From an uncultured delta proteobacterium (lineage in GTDB: Bacteria; Myxococcota_A; Polyangia; Fen-1088): DNA of 64,000 bases. Positions 19,787 to 53,301 of this stretch are shown here, piece after piece (positions within the stretch are counted from its first letter, which is position 1; every line of letters begins with the position of its first letter). The notes beneath the pieces were generated by a model. That model made no database searches and was not told where the DNA came from. It saw only the letters and a program-made list of their open reading frames with translations. The stretch lies in assembly GCA_963767925.1 (NCBI GenBank), contig CAVYGB010000008.1, positions 1,088,001 through 1,152,000 of the forward strand, given 5' to 3'. Position numbers and translations under genes: made by a program.

Positions 19787-19853
19787 TCGACCCACCATCG
19801 GTGTTTCATCCTGAAAACTTGACGCGGTCCCCTGCAAGCCGTCAGACTTAGGG

Positions 19854-34182: not shown

Positions 34183-35091
34183 GTGAGTCAGCCGGCGGAC
34201 GCCCTCGATCCCACCCTGGCGGCGCTCGATCCGACCGAGCGGGCCTTCGTGCTGGGCTCGACGGTGCTCGGGCTGGGGCCGGAGAACGCGGCCGTCCTGG
34301 CGGGGCCCGCGGGCGAGCGTTGCGCTGCTGCGCTGCGGACGCTGGCCAAGGTCCCCCGCGACCAGAAGGCCGGCCGCATCGGCCAGCTCGCGCGCGAGCT
34401 GGGCGCGGCCTTTCCTCCTGCGGTCGAGATCGTGCACCCGAGCTGGCTGCCCAAGGCCCTGGCCGCCGAGCCCTCCGATCTCTTGCCCGCCCTGGTAGTG
34501 GGAGCCTCGCCCTCGGTCCGGCAGGCGGTTGGTGAGGTGATGCAGTCCCGCCGCGCCGAGGGGGAGCTGGCCAACCCGGCCACGCTCTCGCCCGAGCTCG
34601 CCGCCGAGCTACGACGGGTGGTCTTTGCCTCGCTGAGGCATGTCTTCGCTGCCTGCCAGGGGCCCCTGGCGGCGGTGCTCGAGCGCACCGGCCCGGGTGC
34701 CCTCCAGGAGGTGCGGCGCCTGGGCGCGCGGTCGCTGGGGGCCTCGCTGGCCGGCTCTCCGCACGAGGTGCTGGCGCGGGCCATGGCGGTGGTGGGCGGG
34801 AGCTTCGCCGGGGATCTTCGCCAGTCCGCCGAGGCGGCTGACCCCGCCGCCCGCCGGGAAGGGGAGGCCGACGTCAAGGCCGCCGCCGCGGACGCGGCCG
34901 CCACCTCCGAGGAGCGGCTCGAGCGGATCGGCCACCGGGCGATGCTCCGGCTGGCGCGGGCCCAGGACGACGAGGTCAAGCGGGCGGTGGCCCTGCGGTT
35001 GCCCCGCGAGCTGGGCAAACACCTCCTCGGCACGGGAGCGGCGGCCGAGGGGGCGCAGGGGGGACGGCGAGGAGCGGGCGACAGGCCATGA
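34183..35091 (+). CDS. Hypothetical protein, putative SctK-like sorting-platform component
   Basis: Directly upstream of sctL/fliH and sctN/fliI. Helical Ala/Leu-rich protein with a VHPSWL motif reminiscent of SctK-position proteins. The function is inferred. Confidence 0.5.
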   Translation: MSQPADALDPTLAALDPTERAFVLGSTVLGLGPENAAVLAGPAGERCAAALRTLAKVPRDQKAGRIGQLARELGAAFPPAVEIVHPSWLPKALAAEPSDLLPALVVGASPSVRQAVGEVMQSRRAEGELANPATLSPELAAELRRVVFASLRHVFAACQGPLAAVLERTGPGALQEVRRLGARSLGASLAGSPHEVLARAMAVVGGSFAGDLRQSAEAADPAARREGEADVKAAAADAAATSEERLERIGHRAMLRLARAQDDEVKRAVALRLPRELGKHLLGTGAAAEGAQGGRRGAGDRP

Positions 35092-35104
35092 GCAGGAGCG
35101 GGAC

Positions 35105-35692
35105 ATGGGTCGTTTGATGAAAGGCAAGGGGTACGTCGTGCCCCGGGTGGTGATGGGCGCACGCGAGCAGGCGGATCTCCTGCTCGCAGCGGCCCAGTCG
35201 GCCGCCGAGGAGGACCGCCGTCGCGGCTACGAGCAAGGGCTGACCGAGGGGCGCGAGGCCGCCCTCGCGGAGATGACCGAGATCCTGGTGCGGGCCCAGC
35301 AAGAGGCCGACGAGCTGCGCACCGCCAGCAAGGAGGCCGCCATCCCCATCGCCCGTCGCATGGCCGAGCGGATCGTGGGGCGAGCCCTCGAGCTGCACCC
35401 CAGCTTGATCGGCGACATCGCCGCCCAGGCGCTGGCCGCCAGCCGGGCCCGGTCCGGCCTGGTGACCTTGCGGGTGCACCCCGTCGACCTCGTGGCCCTC
35501 GAGCAGGAGCGCCCGCGCCTGGCGGCGCGCCTCGGTGGCGCCCTCGATCTGCAGCTCGTGGCCGACGAGGCCATCGTCCAGGGCGGTTGTATCGTCGAGA
35601 CCACCTCGGGCCGGCTGGACGCCCGCCTCGACCGCCAGCTCGACGCCATCGAAAAGGCCCTCGGGCAAAAGATGAGCGGCTCCCGTTCATGA
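35105..35692 (+). CDS. FliH/SctL family stator protein
   Basis: RRGYEQGLTEGR repeat, IARRMAERIVG, LRVHPVD, ADEAIVQGGCIVETTSGRLDARLDRQL; AGGAG RBS. Confidence 0.9.
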   Translation: MGRLMKGKGYVVPRVVMGAREQADLLLAAAQSAAEEDRRRGYEQGLTEGREAALAEMTEILVRAQQEADELRTASKEAAIPIARRMAERIVGRALELHPSLIGDIAAQALAASRARSGLVTLRVHPVDLVALEQERPRLAARLGGALDLQLVADEAIVQGGCIVETTSGRLDARLDRQLDAIEKALGQKMSGSRS

Positions 35693-35704
35693 GAGGATGA
35701 GACC

Positions 35705-37027
35705 GTGGCAGGCGAAAGGCAGGCTCCGCTGATCGAGCTCGGGGAAGCGCTGGCGGCGCTCGACGAGATAAATCCCCTGCGCATCTCCGGCCGGGTGACC
35801 GAGGTGACCGGTCTGGTGGTCCGGGCCCTGGTCCCGGGCATCCGCATGGGCGAGATGGTGATCATCGAGTGCACCCCGCGTCTGCGGGCCGAGGTGGTGG
35901 GTTTTCGCGGCGACGAGGCGGTCCTGATGCCGCTCGGAGATCTCAGCGGGGTGGGGCCAGACGCCGCGGTCAGCCCGCTGGGCCGACCGCTCTCGATCCG
36001 GATGGGGGAGGGGGTGCTCGGGCGGGTGCTCGACGGCCTGGGTGAGCCGATGGACGGCCTCGGGCCTCTCGCCGGTCCTACCCAGGACTGGGCGGTCGAC
36101 CGAGCGGCGCCCGATCCCCTCCGCCGCCGCCGGGTCGATCGCCCCCTGACCCTCGGCGTGCGGGCCATCGATTCGTTGCTCACCGTGGGGGAGGGCCAAA
36201 GGGTGGGCGTCTTCGCCGGCTCCGGCGTCGGCAAGTCGACCCTCATGGGCCAGATCGCTCGCAACACGGAGGCCGACGTCAACGTCATCTGCCTGGTCGG
36301 CGAGCGTGGTCGCGAGGTCGTCGAGTTCATCGAGGACTCGCTCGGCGCCGAAGGGCGAGCCCGCTCGGTCGTGATCTGCGCCACCAGCGACGTGCCCAGC
36401 CTGGTCCGGCTCAAGTCGACCTTCGTCGCCACCTCGGTGGCAGAGTGGTTCCGCGACCGGGGCTTGCGGGTCCTGCTGATGATGGACTCGGTTACCCGGT
36501 TCGCCCGGGCCCAGCGCGAGGTCGGGCTGGCCGCCGGGGAGCCACCCGCGCGGCAGGGCTACCCGCCCAGCGTGTTCGCCATCATGCCCCGCCTGCTCGA
36601 GCGAACCGGCAACTCCGAGCTGGGATCGATCACGGCGCTCTACACCGTGCTGGTCTCCGGCGGCGACATGGAGGAGCCCATCGCCGACGAGGTGCGCGGT
36701 ATCCTCGACGGCCACATTATCCTGTCGCGCGACCTCGGCGCTCGCAACCACTGGCCGGCCATCGACGTCCTGCCCTCGCTGTCCCGGGTCATGCCGCTGG
36801 TCACCGACGCCGAGCACCGCAAGGCAGCCGGGCGCATGCGCGAGCTGATGGCCACCTACGAGCGCCAGCGCGACCTGATCCTGCTGGGCGCCTACCAGAA
36901 GGGCAGCGACCCACGCACCGACGAGGCCATCGCCAAGATCGACGTCATCAACGCCTTTTTGCGCCAGGGCGTCCAGGAGAACACCCCCTTTGCCGAGACC
37001 CGCCAGCGGCTGATCTCGCTGGTCTGA
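35705..37027 (+). CDS. FliI/SctN family type III export ATPase
   Basis: Walker A GVFAGSGVGKST, VGERGREV, LMMDSVTRFARAQRE, GEPPARQGYPPSVF, ILDGHIILSR. Confidence 0.95.
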   Translation: MAGERQAPLIELGEALAALDEINPLRISGRVTEVTGLVVRALVPGIRMGEMVIIECTPRLRAEVVGFRGDEAVLMPLGDLSGVGPDAAVSPLGRPLSIRMGEGVLGRVLDGLGEPMDGLGPLAGPTQDWAVDRAAPDPLRRRRVDRPLTLGVRAIDSLLTVGEGQRVGVFAGSGVGKSTLMGQIARNTEADVNVICLVGERGREVVEFIEDSLGAEGRARSVVICATSDVPSLVRLKSTFVATSVAEWFRDRGLRVLLMMDSVTRFARAQREVGLAAGEPPARQGYPPSVFAIMPRLLERTGNSELGSITALYTVLVSGGDMEEPIADEVRGILDGHIILSRDLGARNHWPAIDVLPSLSRVMPLVTDAEHRKAAGRMRELMATYERQRDLILLGAYQKGSDPRTDEAIAKIDVINAFLRQGVQENTPFAETRQRLISLV

Positions 37028-37047
37028 CGGGACCGAGGAGAATCGAG

Positions 37048-37392
37048 ATGACCGACTGCCTGTTCTGCAAGCTGCGCGACGGCGGCCTCCCCGCCCAGAT
37101 CACCTACCGCGACGACGACGTCCTCGCCTTCAAGGACATCAAGTCCCAGGCTCCGCTGCACGAGCTCGTGATCCCGACCCGGCACGTCAGCAGCCTCGCC
37201 ACCGCCAAGCCCGAAGACGCCGCCATCCTCGGCAAGCTCATGCTGGTGGCGGCCGAGCGGGCCCGCGACGCCGGATACGACGACAGCGGCTTCCGGGTGG
37301 TCATGAACTCCGGGGCCGACGCCGGCCAGACCGTCTTTCACGTGCACCTGCACGTGCTGGCCGGCCGCCGCCTGGGCTGGCCCCCCGGGTAG
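37048..37392 (+). CDS. hinT: Histidine triad (HIT) nucleotide-binding protein
   Basis: DCLFCK, AFKDI..QAPLH.LVIP, AGQTVFHVHLHVLAGR..WPPG; GAGGAG RBS. Confidence 0.92.
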   Translation: MTDCLFCKLRDGGLPAQITYRDDDVLAFKDIKSQAPLHELVIPTRHVSSLATAKPEDAAILGKLMLVAAERARDAGYDDSGFRVVMNSGADAGQTVFHVHLHVLAGRRLGWPPG

Positions 37393-37416
37393 CTGGCAGG
37401 GCCGGCCCGGCCGGCC

Positions 37417-38394
37417 TCACAGCCGGACTTCGACCAGGGTCTTCTTGCGCAGCTCGCTGAGGTAGATCTTGGTCTGACGCTCCATCTCCTTCTGACGGAG
37501 CTGCAGGCGGAGCTGCTCCTTGACGTCGGCCAGGGGCTTGACGTCGGCGGCGCGGCGGTCGACCAGCTTGATCACGTGAAAGCCCTGGTTGCCGCGCACC
37601 GGACCGCCGATCTCGCCGACGCCCATGGAGAACACCAGCTCCTCCACCGGCTTGGGCAGCCCCATCTCCTTGCCGAAGTAGCCGAGGTCGCCACCTTCGG
37701 CCCGGGTGGCCCGGTCCTCCGATAGCTCCTTGGCCAGGGTGGCGAAGTCCTCCCCGGCCCGGGCCCGGGCCAGGATCTTGCGGGCGTACTCCTCGCGCTC
37801 GAGGACCTTGGCCGCGTCGGCGTTTTCGGGGATGGCGACGAAGATGTGGCTGACCTTGACGTTGTCGTTCTTGCCCGACTTCATGTTCCGCTCGTAGTAG
37901 CTCTCGACGTCGTTGTCGCTGACCTGGATCTTCGAGCCCACGGCGATGTTGATGACCCGGTAGCGCAGGATCTCCTTGCGGGTGTTCTGCCGGTAGGAGG
38001 CCAGGCTCATCCCCTGGCGTCGCAGCTCGTCGGCGAGCTGGGTGTCGCTGAGGCTGTAGTCCTTCTTGATCTGCTCGATCGAGCGGTCGACCTCCTCGCT
38101 GCTGACCGAGAGCTTGAGCTCGTTGGCCTGCTGGAGCAGCAGGTGCTCGTCGACGATCCGCTCGAGCACCTCCCGGCGGAGGGCGGACGTCCGCTGCTTG
38201 CGCTGGTTGGCGTCGGGCAGGGCCGCGATCTCCTCGAGGAAGGGCCGCGACCGTTCGTTGACCTCGCTCTCCAAGACGACCTCGTCACCCACCAGGGCGA
38301 CGATGCGTTCGACGATCCGGGCCTGGGCCGCGGTCGAGGAGGCGGCGGCGACGAGCGCCGCCGCCAGTGGAAGCAGATACTGGCGTTTGCTCAT
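37417..38394 (-). CDS. surA: SurA-like periplasmic chaperone / PPIase
   Basis: Signal peptide (AQA), IVERIVALVGDEVVLESE, VSHIF, FATLAKELSED..EGGDLG, GFHVIKL. Confidence 0.85.
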   Translation of the reverse strand: MSKRQYLLPLAAALVAAASSTAAQARIVERIVALVGDEVVLESEVNERSRPFLEEIAALPDANQRKQRTSALRREVLERIVDEHLLLQQANELKLSVSSEEVDRSIEQIKKDYSLSDTQLADELRRQGMSLASYRQNTRKEILRYRVINIAVGSKIQVSDNDVESYYERNMKSGKNDNVKVSHIFVAIPENADAAKVLEREEYARKILARARAGEDFATLAKELSEDRATRAEGGDLGYFGKEMGLPKPVEELVFSMGVGEIGGPVRGNQGFHVIKLVDRRAADVKPLADVKEQLRLQLRQKEMERQTKIYLSELRKKTLVEVRL

Positions 38395-39302
38395 GGTGGG
38401 CTCTTGATGTCCTTCAGCTTGTCTTCGAAAACCTCGATTTTGACCCGTCCCCGCATCTCCTGCACCCATTCCTCGACTTTCTGCCCCCGCCGCTCCTGGT
38501 GCAGGCGGGTCCTGACCTGCCGCTTCACCTCCTCGAAGGGACGGAGGAACCCGGCCCGCCTTTGCGTCAGCCTGAGGATGTGAAACCCCTTTTCGGTCTC
38601 GACCGGGTCGGAGACGTCACCGATCTGCCGGAGAGCATGAGCGGCGTCGACCACGGGCCGGGGCGGCTCGGGGCTGTCGCGCTCCAGGAAGGTCAGGTCG
38701 CCGCCGCGTTGCTTCGAGTCCTCGTCCCGGGAGTGACGCTCGACGAGGCCCCGGAAGCCCTTCTCGTCGCGCGCCCCCAGGGCCCGGGCCTCCTGGACCA
38801 GGCGGGCGGCGCTCTCCCGATCCTTGACCAGGATCTGGCTCACCCGGACCGCCTCCTTCTGGGTGAACAGGTCGGCGTGGCTCCGGTAGTAGGGCTCGAG
38901 GTCGGCCTCCGGGATGTCCTCCGCCTTGAAGGTCGCGTCCAGCTCCTTGGCGATCATCTCCTCGATCGAGCGCTGCTTGACGAAGCGGACCACGTCGGGG
39001 TCCCGCCGGTAGCCCCGCTTGTCGGCCTCCATCGCCATCACCTCGAAGCGGATGAGGTTCTGCAGGAACTCCTTGCGCCGCTCTGGCGACCGGTAGCGGG
39101 CCTGGGCGTAGGGGGACTGGCGCCCGAGGTGCCGTTCGAAGTCGCTGCGGGTGATGGCCTTCCCGTCGATACGGGCCACCACCTCGGCCTCGTCCTGGCT
39201 CCCCGGCCCGCGCGCCGATCCCCCCGACCCTGCTTCCGTGCGGTCACAGGCGATCAGCAGGCCGAGCCCGAAGCCGATCCGTGCCGCGCACCCTGGGCGC
39301 AT
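38391..39302 (-). CDS. Parvulin-type PPIase lipoprotein (PpiC/PrsA-like)
   Basis: Lipobox LIAC, VVARIDGKAIT, VRVSQILV, HSRDEDSKQRGGDL, SDPVETEKGFHIL; overlaps the surA start. Confidence 0.85.
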   Translation of the reverse strand: MRPGCAARIGFGLGLLIACDRTEAGSGGSARGPGSQDEAEVVARIDGKAITRSDFERHLGRQSPYAQARYRSPERRKEFLQNLIRFEVMAMEADKRGYRRDPDVVRFVKQRSIEEMIAKELDATFKAEDIPEADLEPYYRSHADLFTQKEAVRVSQILVKDRESAARLVQEARALGARDEKGFRGLVERHSRDEDSKQRGGDLTFLERDSPEPPRPVVDAAHALRQIGDVSDPVETEKGFHILRLTQRRAGFLRPFEEVKRQVRTRLHQERRGQKVEEWVQEMRGRVKIEVFEDKLKDIKSPP

Positions 39303-39443
39303 GGTCTCTAGATGACATGGTCGGCCCGCTGCCCGCAAGCGTGCGGGTTCACCTGCGACCCCGCCCCACACGACCGTCCTCTCCTGGGCCACCCCTTTGC
39401 TTCGATCGACCTGGGCGGTCCAGGTAGCGTAATTTAATAGGAC

Positions 39444-40541
39444 ATGGCACTGAGGTTGGGGGAGCTGCTCATGTCCCGGGGGTTGCTGACGTCCGAGCAG
39501 CTCGCGCAGGCCTTGCACGGCCAGAGCATCTTCGGTGGACGTCTGGGAACCAACCTCGTGGAGATGGGCTTCGTCACCGAGGAGCAGATCGCGGCCAGCC
39601 TGAGCCAGCAGCTCGGTCTGCCCTGCGCGCGCCCGCAATGGGTGGCGGCCATTCCCCGCGAGGTCATAAGCTGCATGTCCCGGGACATCGCCGAGCGGTA
39701 CCGGGTCATCCCCCTCAAGAAAGAGGGGCGAGAGCTGCACGTTGGGCTGGCCGATCCCCAGAACCTCGAGCGGGTGGACGAGCTGAGCTTCGCCACCGGC
39801 TGCCCCTTGCGCGCCTTCGTCATCACCGAGGTGACCCTGAACTACGCGCTCGAGCGGTATTACGGCATCCGGCGCGAGGTCCGCTACCTCAAGCTGGCCG
39901 GCGCCGAGTCGGCCGAGATGCGCCTCACCACCATCGCCGAGAGCGTCGACCATCGGATGGGCATGGCCACCCCGACGCCGGCGACGGCGGCCCACGCCCC
40001 GGCCGGTTCCGCGCTGGCGGCTCCCGGCACCCATGTCGCCCAGGCGCTCGCCGACACGCCCAACTCCGACCTCGTCGAGCGGCTGGCCAGCGTGATGTCC
40101 GACACCGACTTCCTGGAGATCGTGTTCGCCTTTCTGATCCGGCTGTTCGACGACGTCGCCATCCTGGTGCCGCGGGGCGAGTCGGTCCAGGGCATCATGA
40201 TCGGCAACGGGACCGCCCGCCGCCCCTACGCCAGCGCCCTGCACGCGCCCTGCGGGCCCGGCACCTTGCTGGGGGAGGTGGTCAGCAAGGCCCAGATCGC
40301 CTACCGGGCCGAGCTCACCGACGACGGCCTGCTCGCCTTCTGTCACGCGGCCGGCATCCGCGCGGCCCGCATCGCCGTCATCCCCATCTTCGACAACCGG
40401 GCGCCCGTGCTGATCGCGCTCGGGCAGGGGATGGAGCAGCCGATCCTCGTCGAATACATCGACCAGATCCGGACCTTCCTGGCCAAGGCCTCGAGCGCCT
40501 TCCAGATCATCGCCCTGCGCAAGCAGATCCTCGCGCGCTGA
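39444..40541 (+). CDS. Stand-alone MshEN (T2SSE_N) domain protein without an ATPase domain
   Basis: Tandem RLGELLMSRGLLTSEQLAQALHGQ / RLGTNLVEMGFVTEEQIAASLSQQ, then AERYRVIP..ADP. No Walker A motif in the C-terminal half. Confidence 0.85.
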   Translation: MALRLGELLMSRGLLTSEQLAQALHGQSIFGGRLGTNLVEMGFVTEEQIAASLSQQLGLPCARPQWVAAIPREVISCMSRDIAERYRVIPLKKEGRELHVGLADPQNLERVDELSFATGCPLRAFVITEVTLNYALERYYGIRREVRYLKLAGAESAEMRLTTIAESVDHRMGMATPTPATAAHAPAGSALAAPGTHVAQALADTPNSDLVERLASVMSDTDFLEIVFAFLIRLFDDVAILVPRGESVQGIMIGNGTARRPYASALHAPCGPGTLLGEVVSKAQIAYRAELTDDGLLAFCHAAGIRAARIAVIPIFDNRAPVLIALGQGMEQPILVEYIDQIRTFLAKASSAFQIIALRKQILAR

Positions 40542-40565
40542 CCGGTCCGGACGCGCCGCGGCCGA

Positions 40566-44162: not shown

Positions 44163-44229
44163 TGGGCTGGGCTTTTTACCTCACGTCGGGCGGGCGAGCC
44201 GACGCCGCGTTGCCTTCGCGGTGGGCGTG

Positions 44230-44258
44230 TTGACCCCCCCTGCCGGGCGGGCTATCGT
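44230..44258 (+). promoter_or_regulatory. Candidate sigma-70 promoter of the IPT/TIG lipoprotein
   Basis: TTGACC - 17 bp - TATCGT. Confidence 0.55.
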
Positions 44259-44283
44259 CCAGTCCTCGGAAGGGGCCAGCCAC

Positions 44284-44718
44284 ATGAAAATTTTGCCGTC
44301 ATTGTCGGTGTTTGCGGTGATGCTGTCGCTGGCCGCCTGCCAGAGCAAGGGCCAGCTCACGATCGACGAGGTCGAGCCCAACACGGGGATAACGCCCGGC
44401 GGGGACCAGGTCGTCATCAAGGGCGCTGGCTTCGAGCCGGGCAAGACCCAGGTCGAGGTGCGCTTCGGCCGGGCCAAGGCCGACCAGGTCAGCATCACCT
44501 CGGCCGGCACCATCGTGGTGGTGACCCCGCCCGGGGACAAGGGGCCGGTCGATGTCACGCTGATGTTCGACCACGGCCCCCAGTTCAAGATCCCCCAGGG
44601 CTTCCGCTACGTCCCGACCACGACCGCGGACGACGTGCGCAAGGCGTTCTACTCGAACACCCCGCCCGGCACAAAGGCCGGCCAGACCAACACCGCCACG
44701 ACTCCGCCGCCCAAATAG
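44284..44718 (+). CDS. IPT/TIG-domain lipoprotein
   Basis: Lipobox LAAC; IDEVEPNTG..GGDQVVIKGAGF..VRFG..IVVVTPPG..GPVDV..FRY. Confidence 0.85.
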   Translation: MKILPSLSVFAVMLSLAACQSKGQLTIDEVEPNTGITPGGDQVVIKGAGFEPGKTQVEVRFGRAKADQVSITSAGTIVVVTPPGDKGPVDVTLMFDHGPQFKIPQGFRYVPTTTADDVRKAFYSNTPPGTKAGQTNTATTPPPK

Positions 44719-44758
44719 GGTCAGCGAGGCGGGCGGGGGGCGCGGGCAGCGCCGTCGA

Positions 44759-45934
44759 TCAGCGGAACGACGCCCGGAAGAGCTGCTGCCCCATGAGCAG
44801 CAGGCTCCCCGAGGGGATCACCCGGTTGCCCCGGATGCGGAAGAAGGTGCCGTTGGAGGATCCCAGATCGGAGAGGAAGACCTCGCTGTTGCGCAGCGTG
44901 ATCTGGGCGTGGGTGCCCGAGACGTAACCGTCCTCGGGAAACAGGATGTCTCCGCGCTCCCGCCCCAGCACGACGGCCTCGTCGAACAGGGGGAAGGCCG
45001 GGCCGTCGACGTCGCGGCCCACGATCACCGACACCCGCCCCCAGAAGCCCGGATTCGGGGTCCCGATGATCTCGGTCCCGTCTTCGAGCGGCACCGGCGC
45101 CGAGATGGCATCGAAGCGGAGCAACTCCTGACCGATGCGCAGGATGTCCCCCGACTCGAGCTTCTCCTCGTGCGTGATCTTGATGAAGACCCCGTTGAGG
45201 CTGCGCAGGTCCCGGACGACGAGCCCCTCGGCGGTGAAGGTGAACTCCGCGTGGCGCGGTGACAGGTAAGGGTCGGCATCGAACAGGGACCCCTGTCCGC
45301 GGCCGATCAGGTTCTCCGCCTCGTGCAGCGGATGGACCCCCCCTTCGGTCCCGTCGGGACGGATGAGGGTCAGGTGGCCACGGGGGGCCGGCCGGGCCGA
45401 GGGGACGCCCGAAGCCATGTACATGGTGCGGGCGGCCGAGACGGCGCCGCCGGCGGCAGGTTTCATGCGCTGGCCACAGGACCCGCAGAAGGCGTAGGTG
45501 GAGACCACCATCTTCCCGCAGGAGGGGCAGGCGATCATGTCTCGCGCTCCCACCGTTCCGCTGCCCGCGCCATCGGTCAGGGGCTGGATGGGGGCCGGTG
45601 ACAGCGGGCCGGGGGAGGGGGTGGGTGTGAGGATCGACCCGCTCACCCCGCCCGGGCGCTTGGAGACCCCCGAGGGGGTCGGCTGAAAGACCGCCTGGGC
45701 GCCGGGGATGCCGGCCGGAACCGGGGGCAACACGGGCGCGGGGCCCATCCCGGCGGTCAGCGCGGGGCCGGGCGACGGTGGGGTCTTGGTGCGGACCGGG
45801 CCGGTCGGCTCGCCAGGCGGAGCGGCGCCGACCGCCGGCGGGGGCGCCGCGGGAGCCTCGAGCTTGGCGCCGCACCCCAGGCAGAACTTGTAGTGTTTCT
45901 GGTTCTCTTTTCCGCAGCGGGCACAGGTGATCAC
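44759..45934 (-). CDS. Double Zn-ribbon + Pro-rich linker + tandem FHA protein
   Basis: CARCG..FCLGCG; CPSCG..FCGSCG; FHA1 IGR..SPRH..NG; FHA2 LGR..SGTH..SSNGT. Confidence 0.88.
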   Translation of the reverse strand: MITCARCGKENQKHYKFCLGCGAKLEAPAAPPPAVGAAPPGEPTGPVRTKTPPSPGPALTAGMGPAPVLPPVPAGIPGAQAVFQPTPSGVSKRPGGVSGSILTPTPSPGPLSPAPIQPLTDGAGSGTVGARDMIACPSCGKMVVSTYAFCGSCGQRMKPAAGGAVSAARTMYMASGVPSARPAPRGHLTLIRPDGTEGGVHPLHEAENLIGRGQGSLFDADPYLSPRHAEFTFTAEGLVVRDLRSLNGVFIKITHEEKLESGDILRIGQELLRFDAISAPVPLEDGTEIIGTPNPGFWGRVSVIVGRDVDGPAFPLFDEAVVLGRERGDILFPEDGYVSGTHAQITLRNSEVFLSDLGSSNGTFFRIRGNRVIPSGSLLLMGQQLFRASFR

Positions 45935-45965
45935 GACGTACTCCCAGGCGTTGTGTCAGCGTGTG

Positions 45966-46952
45966 TCATGCGACCTCCACGCGCAAGAGCTGCTGGCCGA
46001 TGAAGACGAAGTCGCCGTTCACCAGGGGCGCCTCCTCCGCGATCCGGATGAAGGTGCCGTTCTTCGATCCGAGGTCCGTCAGGGTGAACAGCCCGTCGGC
46101 CCCGATCCCCACCTGGGCGTGCCGGCCCGAGATGAACGGATCGTCGGGGAAGTTGACGTCGCTGCCCTCGCGCCCGATCGAGATGGTGTCGCCCCGCGCG
46201 CGGTAGATGATCCCGATGCCCCCGCCCCGCAGGCGCTGGGTCAGTCGCATCTTGGAGGCGCGCCGGGGGCTCGCGTAGTAGTAGGTGCCCTCGGCGTCGG
46301 GCTGGGGGCCGAAGTCGGGGGCCGAAGCCTCCACCTGGAGGAGCTGCTCGCCGACCAGGAACAGGCCCCCCGATTCGATGGGGACGGCGTTGCGGATGCG
46401 GACGAAGACTCCGTTTGTCGACCCTTCGTCGCGAACCAAGAGCTTGCCGTCGCGGTAGATGAAGTTGGCGTGCCGGGGCGACAGGAGGGCGTCTTCCGGG
46501 AACAGGATGGCCCCTTCGACCCGTCCGACCAGGTGCTCGTTCCCGTTGAGCTGGTAGCTGATGCCGTCGCCGTTGTCCCCCTTGACCAGGACCAGCTTGG
46601 CCTTGCTCTGCTGCTGTAGGCCCGAGAAGTACATGGTCTTGCTGGGACCGGTGGGAGGCGCGGGGTCCGCCGCGGCCAGCCGGGCGCCACACTTGCCGCA
46701 GAAGCGGTCGTCGACCGGCACCGGGTTGCTGCAGCCTGGGCAGTTCTTCATCGACATCGAGGCCTCCATGCGGGCAGCGCCCTCCCCTGGGTTACCTCCC
46801 CCGCGAGGCTCGATGGGGTGGACCGGCGCTTTGGACCCGGCGCCCGCCACGGCGACTCCATTCCAGCCGAGAGCCGCCCCGCAAGCGGGGCATCGGGCAA
46901 CTCCGAGATCCGTCAGTGCATCGCACTGGGGACAAACGAATCCGACGGGCAT
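45966..46952 (-). CDS. Double Zn-ribbon + tandem FHA protein (paralogue of its neighbour)
   Basis: CPQC..CPACG; CPGC..FCGKCG; FHA1 VGR..SPRH..STNG; FHA2 IGR..SGRH..SKNGT. Confidence 0.88.
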   Translation of the reverse strand: MPVGFVCPQCDALTDLGVARCPACGAALGWNGVAVAGAGSKAPVHPIEPRGGGNPGEGAARMEASMSMKNCPGCSNPVPVDDRFCGKCGARLAAADPAPPTGPSKTMYFSGLQQQSKAKLVLVKGDNGDGISYQLNGNEHLVGRVEGAILFPEDALLSPRHANFIYRDGKLLVRDEGSTNGVFVRIRNAVPIESGGLFLVGEQLLQVEASAPDFGPQPDAEGTYYYASPRRASKMRLTQRLRGGGIGIIYRARGDTISIGREGSDVNFPDDPFISGRHAQVGIGADGLFTLTDLGSKNGTFIRIAEEAPLVNGDFVFIGQQLLRVEVA

Positions 46953-46960
46953 CCGATTCG

Positions 46961-46988
46961 ATCATGCTCTTGGGCTCGGACCTGTCAA
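46961..46988 (-). promoter_or_regulatory. Candidate sigma-70 promoter of the FHA gene pair
   Basis: Minus strand TTGACA - 16 bp - CATGAT, 8 nt before the ATG at 46952. Confidence 0.55.
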
Positions 46989-47057
46989 TAAGAACGGCAA
47001 GGTTATTGCCTGATGGGAGCCCAAGAACGGACGCAACGGACGCCTTCACCTTCACCT

Positions 47058-50000
47058 TCACCCGCCGCCCGGACGGGGGCGCGCTGTCGCTGGACCGACT
47101 GCGGGACCGACATTGTCCGCCGGGCGGCTCCCGGCCGACGCTCGCCGGGCGGCCGCCCGGACCAGCGGGCTCGGGTCTTCGAGCGCGGGCCGCAGCAGCG
47201 GATCGGGTGGCTGACCGGCCAGGCCCAGGGCCTCCACCGTGGCCAGCCGGACCGACCATGCGGGGTGGGCGAGGAGCCGGGGCGCCTGCTGCCACAGCCG
47301 CTGGCTGTCGAGCGCCGTCCACTGTCCCCGGCTCCGGAGGGCGGCCAGCGCCTGCAGGGCCACCTGAGCCGGATCGAGGCCCTCGAGGTCGGCGGCGCCG
47401 CTCGCCTGGGCGGGACCGCGCCCGGCCGCCTCCCGGAGCGCGGAGACGATGTGGGTGCTCGTGATCCGGCCGTCCTGCAGGCGGGTCGCCAGCCGCAACG
47501 CCCTCAGTCGCACAACGGTGTCCGGGTCGGTCAGCAGCCGGCCGAGCGACTCCCGCAGCCGGGCGGCCAGCGCCGCCCGCGGTCCAGCCAGCCCGCCGCT
47601 GGCGGCGCTGCCGTCGAGCGTGACGAGCGCGCGCCGCCGGTCCTCGACCCGTCCCCGCAGGGCAGCCTCGAACAGCTCGGCGATCTCGCCGGCGTGCTCG
47701 ACGAAGAGGCCCTCCACCTCGACCTCGGCGTCGCGGGGCAGGGCACACAGCTCGTCGAGCAGGGGGCCCGGATCCAGGCGGTCCCCCCGGATCGAGGGCG
47801 CGTCGTCGGGGATGGCCGCCTCGGAGGCGTGGGTGGCGAGGGCGAGGGCGGCGACCTCCTGGCTCTGGCCGCCACCGAGCAGGGCGCGCCGCCAGAGCCC
47901 CGCGAGCGCGCTCCGTTCCCGCAACACACCCACCGCACAGGCGGCCGAACGGGCCAGCAGGGGGTCGGAGGCGTCGAGCAACGGGAGCAAGGTCCCGTCG
48001 GGATCCGGCGCCCGCGCCATCGCCAGCCCCACGAGGGCCGCCCGGCGGGCGTCGACCGGGCGGCTCGCATCGAGGGCCATGCTGCGCAGGGCCTGGCTGG
48101 CGCTGCCGGTCCCGAGCCGCCCGAGCCCGAGCGCCGCGAAGGCGGCCACCTCGCCGCGGGGATCCCGGGTCGCCGTCCGCAGGCTCGCTTCCGCCTCGAC
48201 CATCTCGAGTCGGCCGAGCGCCCACACCGCCGCCGCCCGCAGCCGGGCCTCCGGGTGGACGCTCAGCTCCAGCAGCCGGGCGAGGGCCGGGCGCGCCTTC
48301 AAACGGCCGAGCGCGACGAGCGCCGCGACCGCCACCCGCTCGGCCTGGGCGGTGTCGACCAGGTCGCTCGCGTCGGCCCGGGGGTCCCCGGCCACCGGGA
48401 CCGCCTCTGGCTCGGGGTCCCGGTCCACCTCGAGCAGCCGGAGCAGGGCCGGCAAGACGTCCCGATTTCCTGCCATCCCAGCCAGCTCGATGACGGCCGG
48501 ATCCGGCGCTCCGTCGGGGTCGATCAAGACGGCGATGAGCGGGCGGCTCGCCCCACCCGCCAGATCCAGCCAGCGCGCGCGGGCCCCCTCGTCGCGGCCG
48601 GCCCGGCGGTAGAGCGCGGGCAGGACGCGGCGGTACACCTCGACGACGAGGCGGCGCTCGCCCGCGCTGGCCGCGACCGGCTCGGCCGCCAGCCGTTCGA
48701 GCAGGTCGGGCAGCTCTCCCGCGTATTCCGCGATGTCGAGCTCCCGCGCGATCAGATCGGCCCGGGTTTCTGGATCCGAGCTGTTCCGCCCGGCGGCGCG
48801 CAGCACATCGAGGGCCTCCGCCGCCTGCCCCCGCCGCACCAGGAGGTCGGCGGCCGAGAGGGCGGCCTTGGCCGAGGCCGGCTCACCGAGCGCAGCCCGG
48901 AGGCTCTCCAGCGCCAGGTCGGGCTGGCCGGCCCGGTCCTGCAGCTCGGCCGCTCGGAGCAGCACCTCGGGCGCCCGCCTGGCCAGCTCGACCGCCCGGG
49001 AGGCGGCGGCCATGGCCGCCTGGTCCTCGTAGCGCTCCAAACGGATCTCGGCGATCTGCAGCAGCGCCTCGGGGGCCCGGGCCGGGACCTGGTCGGCGAA
49101 GCGCTCCAGCCAGGTCACCGCCCGGTCGGTCTGGCGGGACTGGCGCAGCAGCCGCACGAGCATGAGCACCAGCTCGGCGTCCCCCGGTGCGGACCCGCAG
49201 GCCGCGGTGAGGGTCTGGACCGCCTCGGCCGGCGCCTGCAGCTTGAGCTGCAGCTCCGCCAGGAAAAGCGCCGCCTCGCGGTCCTCGGGGTGCCGACCGA
49301 CCCGGTCCTTGAGCAGGACGGTCTCTGCCCGCAACCGCTCGCGGCCCTCCCGGGCCAGCAGGTTGACGATGCGCGCCCGCGCCTCCCGGCGCTCGTGGCT
49401 GCGCTGCGGGCCCAGGCTCTTTTGCAGGACCGACCGCCACTCCGAGACGGCCGCGGACAGCTCCCGCTTCTTCTCCAGGATGCGGGCGAGCGTCCGGTGG
49501 TGGGCCGGCTCGGCGGGCTCGAGCCGCTGCGCCGCGCGGGCCAGCGGCAGGGCCTCGTCGAGCAGGTCGTGGTCGCCCAGCAGCTCGGCCAGACGGGCGT
49601 GGGCGGCCGCGGGTGGCTTGACCACCCGGAGCAGGCCCTGCCAGGTGCGGCGGGCCAGCTCGCGCCGGCCGGACTGGAAGTGGGCCTCCCCCAGGCCGAC
49701 GATGGCCCGCTCGTCGCGGGGGTCGAGCGCGAACAGGGCGTCCCAGCAGGCCAGCACCCGCTCCCCCTCGTTCCAGCGCGAGGCCAGATCCGCCAGCCGG
49801 ACCAGCGCGGGGGGCGAGCGCCGCAGCCGCCGGAGGGCCTGATCGAACCGCCGCTGGGCGTCCTGGCGCTGCCCGCGGCGGTACTTGCGCTCGATCATCT
49901 CGAGGACCGTGTCGGTGTCGACGCCCAGGCGGGCGACGCTGGCCTCGTAGACGCGGGCCACCTCGTCGTCGCGGCCCAGGCGATCGAGCAAGGCCACCAG

Positions 50001-51053
50001 CTTCCGGGTATGGAGACCGTGGCCCGGCTCCTGCCGGTGAAGCGCCTCCCAGGCCCGCGCGGCGCCCGGATAGTCGCCCAGCTCCTCGCGCAGCTCGGCC
50101 AGCGCCTGCCAGGCGGGCACCTGGTCGATGCGGCTACCACCGGTGGTCCGGGCAGCCAGCCAGGGCTCGAGATCGACCCCCCGGCCGCGCCGGAGGGCCA
50201 GCCGCACCACCTGACGATAGAGCTCGAGCCGCTCGGAGGGGGGCGCCGACCGGCGCTCGATCGCGGCGCGCAGGATCTTCTCCGCCGCCTCGGGGTCGCC
50301 GGCCGCTTCGCGCAAGGCGGCCGCCTGCAGCGCCAGTCTGGTTCGCCGGCTGCCGCCGAGCCCGGAGCGGGCCAGGAGCTGCTCGACCGCGTCCGCGCCC
50401 TCGGCGGCATGTCCACCCCGGCCCAGCGCCCGGGCCAGCGCCAGCACCAGCGCGGGGTCGCCGGGCCGCGCGGCCAGCAGGTGTCGACGGACCTCGATCT
50501 CGATCGCGGCCAGGCCGAGGCGATCGGCCAGCGCGGCTGTCCGCTGCAGGAGGTCCCGGCGGCGCCCGGGCGAGCGCTCCCGCGCCGCCGCCGCCTGGTA
50601 ATCCCGCACAGCAGGAGTCAACTGCCCCAGGTGCTCAAGCGCACGCGCCCGCCCCAGCAAGGGGGCCGCCGCTGCGGGGTCGAGCGAGACGGCCCGGTCG
50701 AACTCTGGCCGGGCCTGCCCGGGACGCCCGGCGGCCAGGAGCAACTGGGCGTGCGCCAGCACGGCCGGGTAGGGGGCGCCTGTCGCGCGCGCCGCCGTGC
50801 CGGTGCGCTCGAGGAGGCGCTCGGTCTCCAGCGCGCCGGCTCCCCGGATCACCGCGGCGGCCAGGCCCGGATCATCCGGGCGTGCCCGCAAGGCTCGGAG
50901 CGCCTGCTCGCGCTGCGCCCGAGGCTGGTCCCGCTTGACCTGCCAGTCGGCGGCGACCGCGGGAGCGGCGAGCGCCAGCGATAGAAACCCGCAGCCGGCG
51001 ACCACCCGCAGCCACCGCGCCAGAGCCGGCCTCGCGGCTGCTAGGGGGCGCAT
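47058..51053 (-). CDS. Exported TPR + HEAT repeat protein (about 1330 aa)
   Basis: Signal peptide ending AVA-A; N-terminal TPRs (ALFALDPRDERAIVGLGE); C-terminal HEAT/PBS repeats (RLRAAAVWALGRL, DPSPLVRAAA). The start overlaps the anti-sigma gene. Confidence 0.85.
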   Translation of the reverse strand: MRPLAAARPALARWLRVVAGCGFLSLALAAPAVAADWQVKRDQPRAQREQALRALRARPDDPGLAAAVIRGAGALETERLLERTGTAARATGAPYPAVLAHAQLLLAAGRPGQARPEFDRAVSLDPAAAAPLLGRARALEHLGQLTPAVRDYQAAAARERSPGRRRDLLQRTAALADRLGLAAIEIEVRRHLLAARPGDPALVLALARALGRGGHAAEGADAVEQLLARSGLGGSRRTRLALQAAALREAAGDPEAAEKILRAAIERRSAPPSERLELYRQVVRLALRRGRGVDLEPWLAARTTGGSRIDQVPAWQALAELREELGDYPGAARAWEALHRQEPGHGLHTRKLVALLDRLGRDDEVARVYEASVARLGVDTDTVLEMIERKYRRGQRQDAQRRFDQALRRLRRSPPALVRLADLASRWNEGERVLACWDALFALDPRDERAIVGLGEAHFQSGRRELARRTWQGLLRVVKPPAAAHARLAELLGDHDLLDEALPLARAAQRLEPAEPAHHRTLARILEKKRELSAAVSEWRSVLQKSLGPQRSHERREARARIVNLLAREGRERLRAETVLLKDRVGRHPEDREAALFLAELQLKLQAPAEAVQTLTAACGSAPGDAELVLMLVRLLRQSRQTDRAVTWLERFADQVPARAPEALLQIAEIRLERYEDQAAMAAASRAVELARRAPEVLLRAAELQDRAGQPDLALESLRAALGEPASAKAALSAADLLVRRGQAAEALDVLRAAGRNSSDPETRADLIARELDIAEYAGELPDLLERLAAEPVAASAGERRLVVEVYRRVLPALYRRAGRDEGARARWLDLAGGASRPLIAVLIDPDGAPDPAVIELAGMAGNRDVLPALLRLLEVDRDPEPEAVPVAGDPRADASDLVDTAQAERVAVAALVALGRLKARPALARLLELSVHPEARLRAAAVWALGRLEMVEAEASLRTATRDPRGEVAAFAALGLGRLGTGSASQALRSMALDASRPVDARRAALVGLAMARAPDPDGTLLPLLDASDPLLARSAACAVGVLRERSALAGLWRRALLGGGQSQEVAALALATHASEAAIPDDAPSIRGDRLDPGPLLDELCALPRDAEVEVEGLFVEHAGEIAELFEAALRGRVEDRRRALVTLDGSAASGGLAGPRAALAARLRESLGRLLTDPDTVVRLRALRLATRLQDGRITSTHIVSALREAAGRGPAQASGAADLEGLDPAQVALQALAALRSRGQWTALDSQRLWQQAPRLLAHPAWSVRLATVEALGLAGQPPDPLLRPALEDPSPLVRAAARRASAGSRPADNVGPAVGPATARPRPGGG

Positions 51054-51274
51054 CGGCTGCGCAGGTAGACGCGAACCGCCTCCTTGACCTGCGCCGGCAT
51101 CTCGAGGGCCAGCGCCTGCCGCGAGATCTCGGGGGTGCGGCGGTAAGTCTCGAAAAACGTGACACAGGGGGCGCACACCGAGAGATGGCGCTGGAACCGT
51201 CCTTGCTCCTCTTCGGGGAGGACTCCCTCCAGGTATTCGAGGCAGAAATCCAGCACGTCCTGGCAGCCGATCAT
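51041..51274 (-). CDS. Zinc-binding anti-sigma factor-like protein (zf-HC2/ZAS, 77 aa)
   Basis: C..V...C.EYLEG.L..E...F..HLSVCAPC (HxxxCxxC); GAGGA RBS. Confidence 0.8.
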   Translation of the reverse strand: MIGCQDVLDFCLEYLEGVLPEEEQGRFQRHLSVCAPCVTFFETYRRTPEISRQALALEMPAQVKEAVRVYLRSRCAP

Positions 51275-51345
51275 GTCCTCACTCCCGAAGCCGGGCCGAA
51301 ATATAACCGACGTGAACGAATTCCGCACAACCTGGGGCGGCGATG

Positions 51346-51353
51346 GCCGATAA
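51346..51353 (+). promoter_or_regulatory. Sigma-28 (FliA/WhiG)-type -10 element GCCGATAA
   Basis: Exact consensus 8 nt before ATG 51362. The -35 position (15 nt upstream) reads ACAA, a partial match to TAAA. Confidence 0.5.
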
Positions 51354-51361
51354 AGCCCTCC

Positions 51362-52189
51362 ATGGTGCAGCGAATCGCAGGGAAGGACTCCGCCTCCAGC
51401 GCTTCGGATGCTCAGGGCCCGAAGCGTCAAGAGGAGCGTGCCCCGGCGGACCGCGCCGCCAAGTTCCGCGACATGCTCGGCCCCGGAGCTCAGCGCGAAG
51501 CCGCCGGGCAGGAGCGGGCCAAGAACGCCGGCCGTGCTGGGGCCGAGGGTGCGCCCGGGGCGGCGGGCGCGACCGCGGGCACGAAGCCGAACGGCGCCGG
51601 CCAGGCTGACCCAGGCGGCGCCGGGGCAACCGGTCGGTCCGGACCGGGTACGCCCGCCGAGGTCGCCGCAGCCGCCAGGGACTTGCAGGCTGCCCTGGAC
51701 GAGATCGGAGTGAAGGCCACCCAGGTGCGCGGCGGGGGCGGCAAGGCGGGCGGCGAAGACGCTGGCGGAGAGGCCGCCGCTCTCGGCGCCCAGCTCGCCA
51801 GCGCCATGGGCGCCCCTTCCTGGGGGCGGCCGGAGGGGCCGACCCGGGTCGAGGCCGCCGGCCGGATGATGCCCGCCGAGATGGAGGGCATGGAGAAGAT
51901 GCACAGGCTCCTCATCGGCCAGGGGCCGCAGGGAGCCGAGGCTCGGCTGTCGATCACCGACGGTCCGCTGGCCGGGGCGCAGATCCACCTCAAGACCGGC
52001 CCGGGCGGGGTCCAGGCCGCTGTCTCGACCAGCACCGAATCGTCGCGCCAGACCCTGGTCTCGGCGATGGAAGAGGTCGCCCGCCGCATGAAGGACAAGG
52101 GCCACCGCCTGAGCGTTCAGCAGGCTCCACCGCCCACCCGTCCCGAGCACTCCGGCTGGCCACCCGACCAGGGGGGACAGACTCCCTGA
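51362..52189 (+). CDS. FliK/SctP-like length-control protein
   Basis: Long Gly/Ala low-complexity N-terminal region. The C-terminal domain ARLSITDGPLAGAQIHL..GGVQAAV...SRQTL..AMEEVARRMKDKG fits the T3S4/FliK_C pattern. Lies before sctQ. Confidence 0.65.
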   Translation: MVQRIAGKDSASSASDAQGPKRQEERAPADRAAKFRDMLGPGAQREAAGQERAKNAGRAGAEGAPGAAGATAGTKPNGAGQADPGGAGATGRSGPGTPAEVAAAARDLQAALDEIGVKATQVRGGGGKAGGEDAGGEAAALGAQLASAMGAPSWGRPEGPTRVEAAGRMMPAEMEGMEKMHRLLIGQGPQGAEARLSITDGPLAGAQIHLKTGPGGVQAAVSTSTESSRQTLVSAMEEVARRMKDKGHRLSVQQAPPPTRPEHSGWPPDQGGQTP

Positions 52190-52218
52190 CCGGCGGAGAC
52201 CGTCGGAGAGCGGGCTGA

Positions 52219-53301
52219 ATGGCCAGGCAGGTCAAGGCCTTCGCCTACGAGGGATTACCCACCGTGCCCGCGATGTCCGTGGCCAACGCCCGATCGCTGG
52301 CCCGGGCCCTGGCCGCGAGCGGCGGCTTCGGGACGATCAACGCGCGTGGGCTCGGCCGCCTGCAGCTCGCGGTCGAGCGGGTGGATGTCAGCCCGTGGAA
52401 GGGCGATCCGGGAGCGCACCCCTCGCCCGAGACCGGCTTCATGCTCGTCCGGGTCGACGGTACGTTCGGCTGCGTGACGGTGGAGCGCTTCTTCGCCCTG
52501 GGCCTCGTGCGGATGGTTCTGGGGGCGCCCGCGCCGCCGGTGTTGCGGCCGCTGAGCCCTTCGGAGCGGGGCGTGCTGGGGGCCATCGTGGCCGCGGTGC
52601 TGGCCTCGACCGGAGGGAGCACGCGGGTCTCGCTCGAACGGCCGCGGCCCCCCGAGGGGGAATACGTCGGGTTGAACCTGCTGGCGCGCACGTCGACCCT
52701 GTCTGGCGGCGCCTTGCTGGAGCTCCCGGTGAGCTGGTTGCCGGCCCGGGCCGGCCCGCTGTCCGCGGATGCGAGCTGGCTGCTCGAGACCGTCCTCGTG
52801 ATCGAGGCCGGCAGGACCTCGCTGCCAGGCGGCGCTTTTGCGACCGCCGAGGTTGGCGACGTGGTGGTTTTTGAGGGAGTATCTGCCCTTCGTGATGACT
52901 CCCCGTGGCCTTGCGAGCTGCGCCTCGGTCCCAACCGAGCCCCGGCGCTGCTGGTATCCAGTGGAGAGCTGCGCCTCGAGGCAGCCTTCGTCCTCGGCCC
53001 GCAACCGGCGGCAGAGTCCGACATGAGCGACGAGCAGGATCCCCGCGCGGAGGGCTTCGCGCCGGAAGCCGCGGCGGTGCTGGCCTCGGCCCCGGTCGAG
53101 ATCGTGGCCGAGCTAGGCCGGATTGCCCTGCGAGGGGACGAGGTGCTCGGCTTGACCAGCGGCTCGGTGCTGCCGCTCGGTCCCCGCCGGCGGGACCTGG
53201 TCACCTTGCGGGTGGGGGGCCGGATCTGGGCCCGGGGCGAGCTGGTTCACATCGAAGAGGAGCTCGGCGTTCGCATCACCGAGGTCCTCCGACCGCGCTA
53301 G
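52219..53301 (+). CDS. SctQ / FliM-FliN family C-ring protein
   Basis: C-terminal SpoA domain PVEIVAELGRI.L...EVL.L..GSVLPL...V.LRVGG...ARGELV.IEEELGVRITE, plus a degenerate upstream SpoA (EAGRTSL..GDVV). Confidence 0.85.
   Translation: MARQVKAFAYEGLPTVPAMSVANARSLARALAASGGFGTINARGLGRLQLAVERVDVSPWKGDPGAHPSPETGFMLVRVDGTFGCVTVERFFALGLVRMVLGAPAPPVLRPLSPSERGVLGAIVAAVLASTGGSTRVSLERPRPPEGEYVGLNLLARTSTLSGGALLELPVSWLPARAGPLSADASWLLETVLVIEAGRTSLPGGAFATAEVGDVVVFEGVSALRDDSPWPCELRLGPNRAPALLVSSGELRLEAAFVLGPQPAAESDMSDEQDPRAEGFAPEAAAVLASAPVEIVAELGRIALRGDEVLGLTSGSVLPLGPRRRDLVTLRVGGRIWARGELVHIEEELGVRITEVLRPR

Follow-up and report, generated by a model that had tools for sequence, protein, structure and literature searches.

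What kind of machine is served by type III secretion system (T3SS) genes that lie in two small groups among housekeeping genes? The question is raised by a 64-kb stretch of DNA from an uncultured delta proteobacterium (contig CAVYGB010000008.1, positions 1,088,001 to 1,152,000), which we refer to as the window and which has about 70% G+C and makes up about 2% of a 3.3-Mb contig. A preliminary description had pointed out two plus-strand mini-operons in the window, at 34183-37027 and 51362-53301 and about 14 kb apart, and had proposed that they encode an undescribed, cytoplasm-only module related to T3SSs. The two mini-operons are present as described, apart from small corrections such as the start of sctL. 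We consider it probable that they encode the cytoplasmic half of a scattered, needle-less T3SS of the Myxococcota type (T3SS*) in a Polyangia-like lineage. This reading keeps the dispersed ATPase and sorting-platform set of the preliminary description, myxobacterial in type, and parts with the view that the system is undescribed and confined to the cytoplasm.

Genes were called by third-position G+C content (GC3) and then checked against Pfam and NCBIfam. The upstream mini-operon begins with an all-helical adaptor of 302 aa from an unnamed family (34183..35091, +), placed upstream of sctL in the position of SctK or FliG, and continues with the SctL/FliH stator protein of 195 aa (35105..35692, +; PF02108), the SctN-type T3SS ATPase of 440 aa (35705..37027, +; PF00006, PF18269, TIGR02546) and a gene of the HIT (histidine triad) family (37048..37392, +; PF01230, 8.9e-25). 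The intergenic gaps of 13, 12 and 20 nt suggest that these four genes are probably one transcript; a promoter and terminator scan of 33900-37600 was uninformative, with no promoter-like sites and one terminator-like site against 0.9 expected. The downstream mini-operon consists of an SctP/FliK-class protein of 275 aa (51362..52189, +), whose start is also that of the database's own gene call, and, after a gap of 29 nt, the sorting-platform protein SctQ of 360 aa (52219..53301, +), with a C-terminal SpoA (FliN-type) domain (PF01052, 1.3e-18).

The closest parallel to this gene set is found in Myxococcus xanthus. Supplementary Table S5 of PMC11821767 lists MXAN_2440 as FliG-like, MXAN_2441 as SctL, MXAN_2442 as SctN, MXAN_2443 as SctO, MXAN_2444 as SctP (Flg_hook) and MXAN_2445 as SctQ, and because the order in the window equals that of MXAN_2440-2445, we regard the two mini-operons as a counterpart of a described system. 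In M. xanthus, the T3SS* (the 'long' Myxo non-flagellar T3SS of Abby and Rocha 2012) is encoded by the cluster MXAN_2434-2464, for which PMC10433427 gives SctD, J, I, Q, RSTUV, N and L and no secretin, needle or translocon. The same source and PMC12075869 report that the system is needed for prey lysis, together with a Kil/Tad pilus. The window shares with it the cytoplasmic parts and their order, the Myxococcota host, an ATPase of the non-flagellar kind and a neighbourhood in which no secretin, needle or translocon was seen. The two differ in layout: the M. xanthus genes form one contiguous cluster that includes SctI, J, O, R, S, U, V and D, whereas the block in the window is cut after sctN, has about 14 kb of housekeeping DNA between its halves, carries a HIT gene in the sctO slot and has no membrane part within 64 kb.

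In the literature that we consulted, we found no description of the split layout, nor of T3SS* parts from Polyangia in a main text; Polyangia appear in the supplementary tables of PMC11821767 and in one sentence of PMC11509652. What the window adds is modest: a conserved split layout, a HIT gene in the sctO slot, a predicted interface between the adaptor and SctQ, and a candidate internal start in SctQ. Myxo-type T3SSs are thought to descend from an intermediate between flagellum and injectisome. According to Abby and Rocha, their 'Myxo' loci are basal among non-flagellar T3SSs and were described in Cystobacterineae (PMC3459982).

Identities of the secretion proteins

The ATPase matched PF00006 (9.8e-85) and the T3SS_ATPase_C family PF18269 (1.3e-28), and its Walker A, Walker B and catalytic motifs are intact. 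Its sequence puts it on the non-flagellar side, because it passes the cutoff of the SctN model TIGR02546 (611.2 bits against 604.75) and fails those of three FliI clade models (580.6, 553.5 and 512.7 bits against 629.8, 619.1 and 587.45), is closer to AscN and YscN (55-56% identity) than to Escherichia coli FliI (49%), and lies outside the FliI clade in a phylogeny. SctN proteins of the Ralstonia and Desulfovibrio types are 54-55% identical to it. The tree was built in IQ-TREE (LG+C20) from 26 rows: the window ATPase, 12 relatives, 7 annotated SctN, 4 annotated FliI and 2 F1-beta outgroups. The FliI references form a clade with 99/97 support, and the window ATPase also falls outside the sampled SctN references, in a group of its own supported at 85/36 with short branches in the window's clade. 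The preliminary description had proposed a phylogeny with myxobacterial and chlamydial homologues; our tree, whose references include neither M. xanthus nor chlamydial sequences and in which the Shigella and Pantoea rows are long-branched, separates the ATPase from FliI but does not settle its position among the groups. The same description had called the ATPase intermediate between flagellar and injectisome types on the strength of two motifs, FAGSGVGKS and GEPPARQGYPP. Since FAGSGVGKS and GEPPA..GYPPSVF both occur in E. coli FliI, these motifs do not separate flagellar from injectisome ATPases, and we do not retain that label.

SctL matched the FliH family PF02108 both as an overlong ORF (open reading frame; 1.1e-18) and after trimming (2.4e-19). 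Its true start is the ATG at 35105, with AGGAG upstream, and the start of the overlong ORF at 34640 is wrong. SctQ scored 91 bits on the SpaO_YscQ model TIGR02551 (cutoff 100.8), against 43 bits for FliN and 24 for FliM. At E<=0.001, SctQ matched 104 proteins, of which one is 100% identical to it and several come from named Polyangia; some of these relatives are called FliN or FliM by their sources.

Internally initiated SctQ-C products are known from injectisomes, and SctQ of the window may have one as well. The linker immediately ahead of the SpoA domain is otherwise variable, but its Met269 is kept in 47 of 55 aligned homologues and replaced by Val in 4; the other internal methionines are conserved in only 3-13 of the 55. 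We found no clear ribosome-binding site upstream of Met269. The putative product would comprise residues 269-360 (53023..53301, +), that is, the SpoA domain only, and would fit an injectisome-type SctQ-C.

The first protein of the downstream mini-operon was harder to place. It has a low-complexity linker rich in Gly, Ala and Pro, of variable length among homologues, followed by a conserved C-terminal domain of T3S4 type (about residues 180-250). A search listed 23 such proteins of 204-366 aa, including the window's own, of which 21 matched Flg_hook in Pfam at E<=1 (best 8.9e-05) and 2 matched HpaP; the window protein alone reached only E 0.013 and 15.8 bits on Flg_hook, below the cutoff of 29.8. 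With hhalign, the family aligned to 68 columns of the FliK C-terminal domain in a two-sequence FliK profile (E 0.016), but not significantly to E. coli FliK alone (E 0.21). The best named clusters in the Atlas for residues 165-275 were Flg_hook/FliK (0.91), HpaP (0.89) and SPAN/SpaN (0.89). An AlphaFold2 (AF2) model gave four strands and a helix in the C-terminal region, with predicted local distance difference test (pLDDT) values of 76-89. Foldseek with this model, in which the disordered linker dominates, listed the FliK_C structure 2rrl only at rank 39 (E 0.47), and a profile search of the PDB found no match. Taken as a family, the proteins can be accepted as SctP/FliK-class T3S4 proteins, as the preliminary description had suspected. 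SctU of the export gate is the known partner of SctP, in the pairs FliK/FlhB and SctP/SctU, so a conserved switch protein of SctP type would imply an SctU partner.

The adaptor had been called 'SctK-like', a label that its position and its predicted binding to SctQ still favour but that its sequence does not: no YscK or OrgA-MxiK family matched the adaptor or any of 79 family members. The ORF has a coding-type GC3 of 0.89 and homologues in 159 representatives at E<=1e-3, and it matched no Pfam or NCBIfam family at E<=10. Its AF2 model is confident (20 helices, pLDDT 92.8, predicted TM-score 0.84). Foldseek with this model gave no match at E<=0.001 and no SctK structure among the 49 rows listed; FliG or C-ring chains appeared at ranks 2, 5, 6, 8 and 18, all at E>=0.66. 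FliG also came up in other comparisons at a level short of significance: it was the top match of the PDB profile search (3hjl, E 0.22), FliG_C was matched by 1 of the 79 family members (E 0.074), and all ten named clusters in the Atlas were FliG families (best 0.92, from Myxococcota), with a recognition value below the reliability mark. Alignment with hhalign was not significant against a single E. coli FliG (E 0.77) or a two-sequence FliG profile (E 0.29), and no FliG_N, FliG_M or FliG_C domain of Pfam was found on the adaptor itself. We therefore treat it as an adaptor in the SctK/FliG position, with weak similarity signals that all point toward FliG. A side claim of the doubtful rewired-platform reading taken up below is that the family would be a living intermediate between FliG and SctK. 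Among the unnamed Atlas clusters, the three closest to the adaptor stem from Myxococcota, Planctomycetota and, as the commonest phylum of one cluster, Chlamydiota. Planctomycetota and Chlamydiota are phyla of the PVC (Planctomycetes, Verrucomicrobia, Chlamydiae) group, and Chlamydiales have scattered T3SS loci, which hints at a wider adaptor family.

In injectisomes the adaptor binds the N-terminal domain of SctQ, and structure prediction suggests the same here. Of the four-protein assembly of adaptor, SctL, SctN and SctQ whose modelling had been suggested, we modelled the adaptor-SctQ pair, using alignments of 79 rows for the adaptor and 55 for SctQ. The pair scored 0.77 (runs 0.75, 0.77 and 0.78) and the best of three controls 0.00. 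On this measure, 116 of 157 solved complexes attain the mark, as do 2 of 215 mismatched pairs. Contacts agreed between runs to at least 92%, and partner pLDDT was at least 76. The predicted interface places adaptor residues 16-43, 69-79 and 142-146 on SctQ residues 43-45, 75-77 and 97-140, taking in the invariant E116 and G118 of SctQ and the nearly invariant G21 of the adaptor. The model supports, but does not show, docking of the adaptor on the SctQ N-terminal domain. It could in part be a memory of solved FliG-FliM complexes, although no sequence similarity to those complexes is detectable. The architecture expected for the set is that of the injectisome platform SctK-SctQ-SctL-SctN of Yersinia, Salmonella and Shigella, from which it departs in an adaptor without an SctK family match and in SctQ and SctL scores under the injectisome equivalog cutoffs.

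The HIT gene, an uncertain member of the secretion system, starts 20 nt past sctN, in the slot usual for SctO/FliJ. A HIT gene likewise follows sctN in a relative's locus (L005, 11883-12227, -; PF01230, 9.6e-27). SctO as the small gene after sctN was ruled out, the gene being of the HIT family in both genomes.

Conservation of the split layout and competing explanations

To place the window among its relatives, we used loci from a genome scan with Mfd, which yielded eight loci, five from relatives (L001-L005) and three from distant genomes; the window's own genome was not among them. These loci keep at most 10 kb on either side of mfd: L001-L003 stop short of the expected position of sctN, and in L004 the stretch is too short to reveal the layout. 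The Mfd proteins of L001-L003 and L005 share 62-64% identity with the window's, and that of L004 shares 66%. L001-L003 carry dksA, the glgA-like gene, sctQ, two FHA genes, mfd and surA, and L005 carries an FHA gene, mfd, a peptidyl-prolyl isomerase (PPIase) gene, surA, gnd, two further genes, the HIT gene, sctN, sctL and the adaptor gene. The layout around mfd thus recurs in the loci of four relatives, and the split is old. As soft evidence of shared contigs, equal 'longest_contig' values were seen for 10 pairs of the SctP-like protein with SctQ and 5 pairs of SctN with SctQ.

The genes are conserved, in line with purifying selection. None of the six ORFs is disrupted, and their GC3 of 0.87-0.91 is of coding type; SctN is 72-94% identical to at least 120 listed relatives, the three named ones being Polyangia bins, and is more conserved than Mfd in L005 (71% against 64%); and branches in the window's clade of the ATPase tree are short. 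For these reasons we do not regard the genes as decaying. SctL is 54% identical over 111 aa in L005. Sequence comparison indicates that the adaptor and SctQ evolve fast: the adaptor homologue in the same position in L005 is 31% identical over 117 aa, and SctQ is 31-34% identical in L001-L003.

When window ORFs were compared with Pfam (sets of 18, 19, 6 and 19, three ORFs being in two sets), none matched a family of SctRSTUV, SctJ/FliF, SctC, FliJ, needle, rod, hook or flagellin proteins. Except for SctC, the preliminary description had stated these absences; very small or divergent proteins could escape such scans. Neither was a secretin, needle or translocon gene found within the 64-kb window. 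For the export gate, the evidence is indirect and comes from other Polyangia. The supplementary tables of PMC11821767 list four bins of the order Palsa-1104 in which sctL and sctN are adjacent and sctV and sctR lie hundreds to thousands of genes away, with a distant sctQ homologue in two of them and a distant sctJ in one; in bin G1_1643, for instance, the gene numbers are 04204/04203 for L/N, 04072 for Q, 03036 for V and 01664 for R. By our own count of the printed row of Table S5, homologues of the SctV protein MXAN_2463 are present in 39 of 46 Myxococcota bins. The main text of that paper does not discuss the scattered-gene pattern. PMC11509652 reports sctV and sctR in multiple copies in genomes of Myxococcia and Polyangia. 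Scattering has a precedent outside the phylum: according to PMC3459982, chlamydial non-flagellar T3SSs have their core genes at several separate loci with unrelated genes around them, as in the window. These systems, which inject into eukaryotic cells, possess a secretin, a needle and a translocon; nothing of this sort is seen in the window.

Starting from these identities, their conservation and their synteny, we infer the following for the membrane partners and the working of the system. An ancestral block of FliG-like, SctL, SctN, (SctO), SctP and SctQ genes would have been cut after sctN, and both halves would have become fixed in housekeeping DNA around mfd. SctN would act as the ATPase, tethered by SctL to SctQ, which probably works together with an internally initiated SctQ-C. 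The adaptor, sitting on the N-terminal domain of SctQ, would connect it with a ring in the inner membrane and an export gate (SctRSTUV, SctJ/D), both encoded at other places in the genome, and the SctP-like protein would act on SctU to switch the class of substrate. If M. xanthus is taken as the analogue, the machine would move proteins through the inner membrane and, together with a Tad/Kil-type pilus, probably serve contact-dependent prey lysis.

Several points weigh against this reading. The family scans turned up no membrane component, either in the window or in 35 ORFs of L001-L005, and the placing of the export gate elsewhere in the window's genome is drawn by analogy from other Polyangia, for which the homologue tables of PMC11821767 hold that paper's BLAST matches, some of which could be flagellar. 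The likeness to the M. xanthus block rests on its published annotated gene order, not on M. xanthus sequences, and the role in predation is pure analogy. Among the parts themselves, no SctO/FliJ was found, nor a FliJ family in any scanned ORF; SctL and SctQ match NCBIfam equivalog models at scores below their cutoffs; the branching order of the three ATPase groups has support of only 47/67; and a FliG ancestry of the adaptor is not established by the hhalign, Foldseek and Atlas comparisons given above. Finally, no SctP-like gene lies beside sctQ in L001-L003, and tblastn found none there or in the covered part of L005.

The cytoplasm-only alternative holds that the export gate has been lost and that the ATPase, SctL, SctQ and the adaptor now do another job, such as unfolding proteins or delivering them to a different envelope machine. 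It would account for the lack of any export-gate or ring gene in the window and in the 35 ORFs of the relatives' loci, for the fixation of both halves among housekeeping genes, and for a HIT gene standing where sctO is expected in the window and in L005. We think it quite improbable. A T3S4-type SctP has been retained and conserved, and its partner SctU belongs to the export gate. The Polyangia bins with adjacent sctL and sctN list sctV and sctR, and in one case sctJ, elsewhere, and PMC11509652 agrees. The window, at about 2% of its contig, cannot say whether the system is cytoplasm-only. Somewhat less improbable, but still doubtful, is a platform that has been uncoupled and rewired, with the soluble zinc-ribbon/double-FHA proteins replacing the cytoplasmic FHA domain of SctD as the dock of the adaptor and with gating by cyclic di-GMP (c-di-GMP) through an MshEN receptor and an FHA-GGDEF cyclase; in its extreme form such a platform would supply a machine that is not a T3SS export gate. 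Another alternative, the same machine, complete and scattered but serving a function apart from predation, has a small but real chance of being correct. That function could be the export of periplasmic or outer-membrane-vesicle cargo, development or the remodelling of the envelope, and the c-di-GMP or FHA signalling genes next door may have a part in it. No link to Tad/Kil genes is seen in the window; nearby genes encode an MshEN c-di-GMP receptor, two FHA proteins and an FHA-GGDEF cyclase; and Abby and Rocha doubt that Myxo-type systems secrete beyond the cell (PMC3459982). Set against this, the sole experimental data, from M. xanthus, tie the system to prey lysis with the Kil pilus (PMC10433427 and PMC12075869), and the signalling genes may be mere neighbours, the FHA pair adjoining mfd in all covering loci.

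The two remaining explanations fare worse. That the genes are a part or a leftover of a flagellar export apparatus (FliG-FliH-FliI and FliK-FliN/M) is very unlikely. The order of FliG-like, FliH and FliI genes is indeed that of fliG-fliH-fliI in E. coli and Ralstonia, the Pfam families, common to both sets, are named FliH, FliMN_C (SpoA/FliN_C) and Flg_hook, some SctQ relatives are called FliN or FliM, and the adaptor's weak signals are FliG-like. The ATPase, however, passes the SctN cutoff, fails all three FliI cutoffs and lies outside the 99/97 FliI clade; SctQ scores higher on the SpaO_YscQ model (91 bits) than on those of FliN (43 bits) and FliM (24 bits); the adaptor has no detectable FliG_N, FliG_M or FliG_C; and the scans of the window and of the relatives' loci yielded no flagellar structural gene, with no rod, hook, filament or stator gene in the window. 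Least credible of all is decay, with the genes as relics of a lost T3SS on which selection has relaxed. The block is fragmented, SctO is missing, and the adaptor and SctQ diverge fast at the identities given for L005 and L001-L003, but the six ORFs are intact with coding-type GC3, SctN exceeds Mfd in conservation, each protein has many relatives, the adaptor model is confident at pLDDT 92.8, and residues of the predicted interface are conserved on both sides. The preliminary description had itself named decay as a possibility, and the intact ORFs, the identity of SctN and the recurring layout speak against it.

If the two mini-operons are the cytoplasmic half of a scattered T3SS*, the genes of the platform have stayed strongly constrained in Polyangia even though their cluster has broken up, the system extends beyond the Cystobacterineae/Myxococcia in which it was described, and tight clustering is not needed to keep it. 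Tools that rely on clusters, such as TXSScan and KEGG module calls, will tend to score such genomes as lacking a T3SS or as having a degenerate one. A survey by KEGG annotation and MacSyFinder found T3SSs mainly in 9 Myxococcales genomes (PMC10196010), which would be expected if scattered sets are under-called. The adaptor family, with its confident fold and predicted SctQ interface, offers a handle on the relation between SctK and FliG. The conservation of a 'ruler' or 'switch' protein of SctP type in a system said to be needle-less also raises the question of what is measured or switched.

Genes between and around the two operons

The roughly 14 kb between the mini-operons hold surA, a second PPIase gene (38391-39440, -), the gene of an MshEN-type c-di-GMP-binding protein (39444-40541, +; NF053729, 3.7e-19; PF05157, 5.4e-17; no family for its C-terminal half), mfd, a small TIG-domain gene (about 44.2-44.7 kb), two genes of zinc-ribbon/double-FHA proteins (44759-45934, -, and 45966-46952, -) and the gene of a TPR/HEAT-repeat protein of 1372 aa with a signal-like N-terminal hydrophobic segment (47058-51176, -). 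The separation by surA, mfd and FHA/TPR genes had been noted in the preliminary description; the HIT, second PPIase, MshEN and TIG-domain genes are additions to it. Beyond sctQ lie a glgA-like glycosyltransferase gene (53298-54683, -), far below the NCBIfam GlgA cutoffs and without a Pfam match, dksA (55551-55967, +) and an FHA-GGDEF diguanylate cyclase (about 57.8-58.65 kb, in the ORF 56509-58647, +; GGDEF 1.6e-48, FHA 2.1e-19). The glgA-like gene and dksA adjoin sctQ in relatives too (L002, 3101-5279), and synteny thus reaches past the module. The MshEN protein, encoded between the operons, and the FHA-GGDEF cyclase, whose gene lies about 4.5 kb past sctQ, give the surroundings of the module a c-di-GMP theme.

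The two FHA proteins matched Yop-YscD_cpl at 45.4 and 37.1 bits, above the gathering cutoff of 33.2. They were ruled out as SctD, having no hydrophobic segment (maximum Kyte-Doolittle value over 19 residues 1.09-1.14) and no periplasmic part. In relatives, the FHA genes lie at about 6.8-9.4 kb in L001-L003, between mfd and sctQ, and at 3-899 in L005. They adjoin mfd in every relative's locus that covers the stretch, and their position therefore tells nothing about a link to sctQ. The FHA genes of L001 are in pieces across frames, which suggests assembly indels.

The TPR/HEAT gene is transcribed divergently from the SctP-like gene, and tblastn found no counterpart of its protein in L001-L003 or the covered part of L005. 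The antisense ORF opposite it (47013-50984, +) has no Pfam match and is probably spurious. Farther upstream, ORFs 12190-12885, 17715-18656, 19815-20273 and 27026-28003 likewise have no Pfam match, and a TPR-rich protein of 1564 aa (12886-17580, +) has very high first-position G+C and is overlapped by a long antisense ORF. Other genes have entered the region beside mfd in relatives: the insert in L001 (19628-23570) encodes a kinase-TIR protein and a DDE transposase, and that in L002 (13612-14294) a PIN/Phd toxin-antitoxin pair as well as a Ser/Thr kinase with TPR and PEGA domains.

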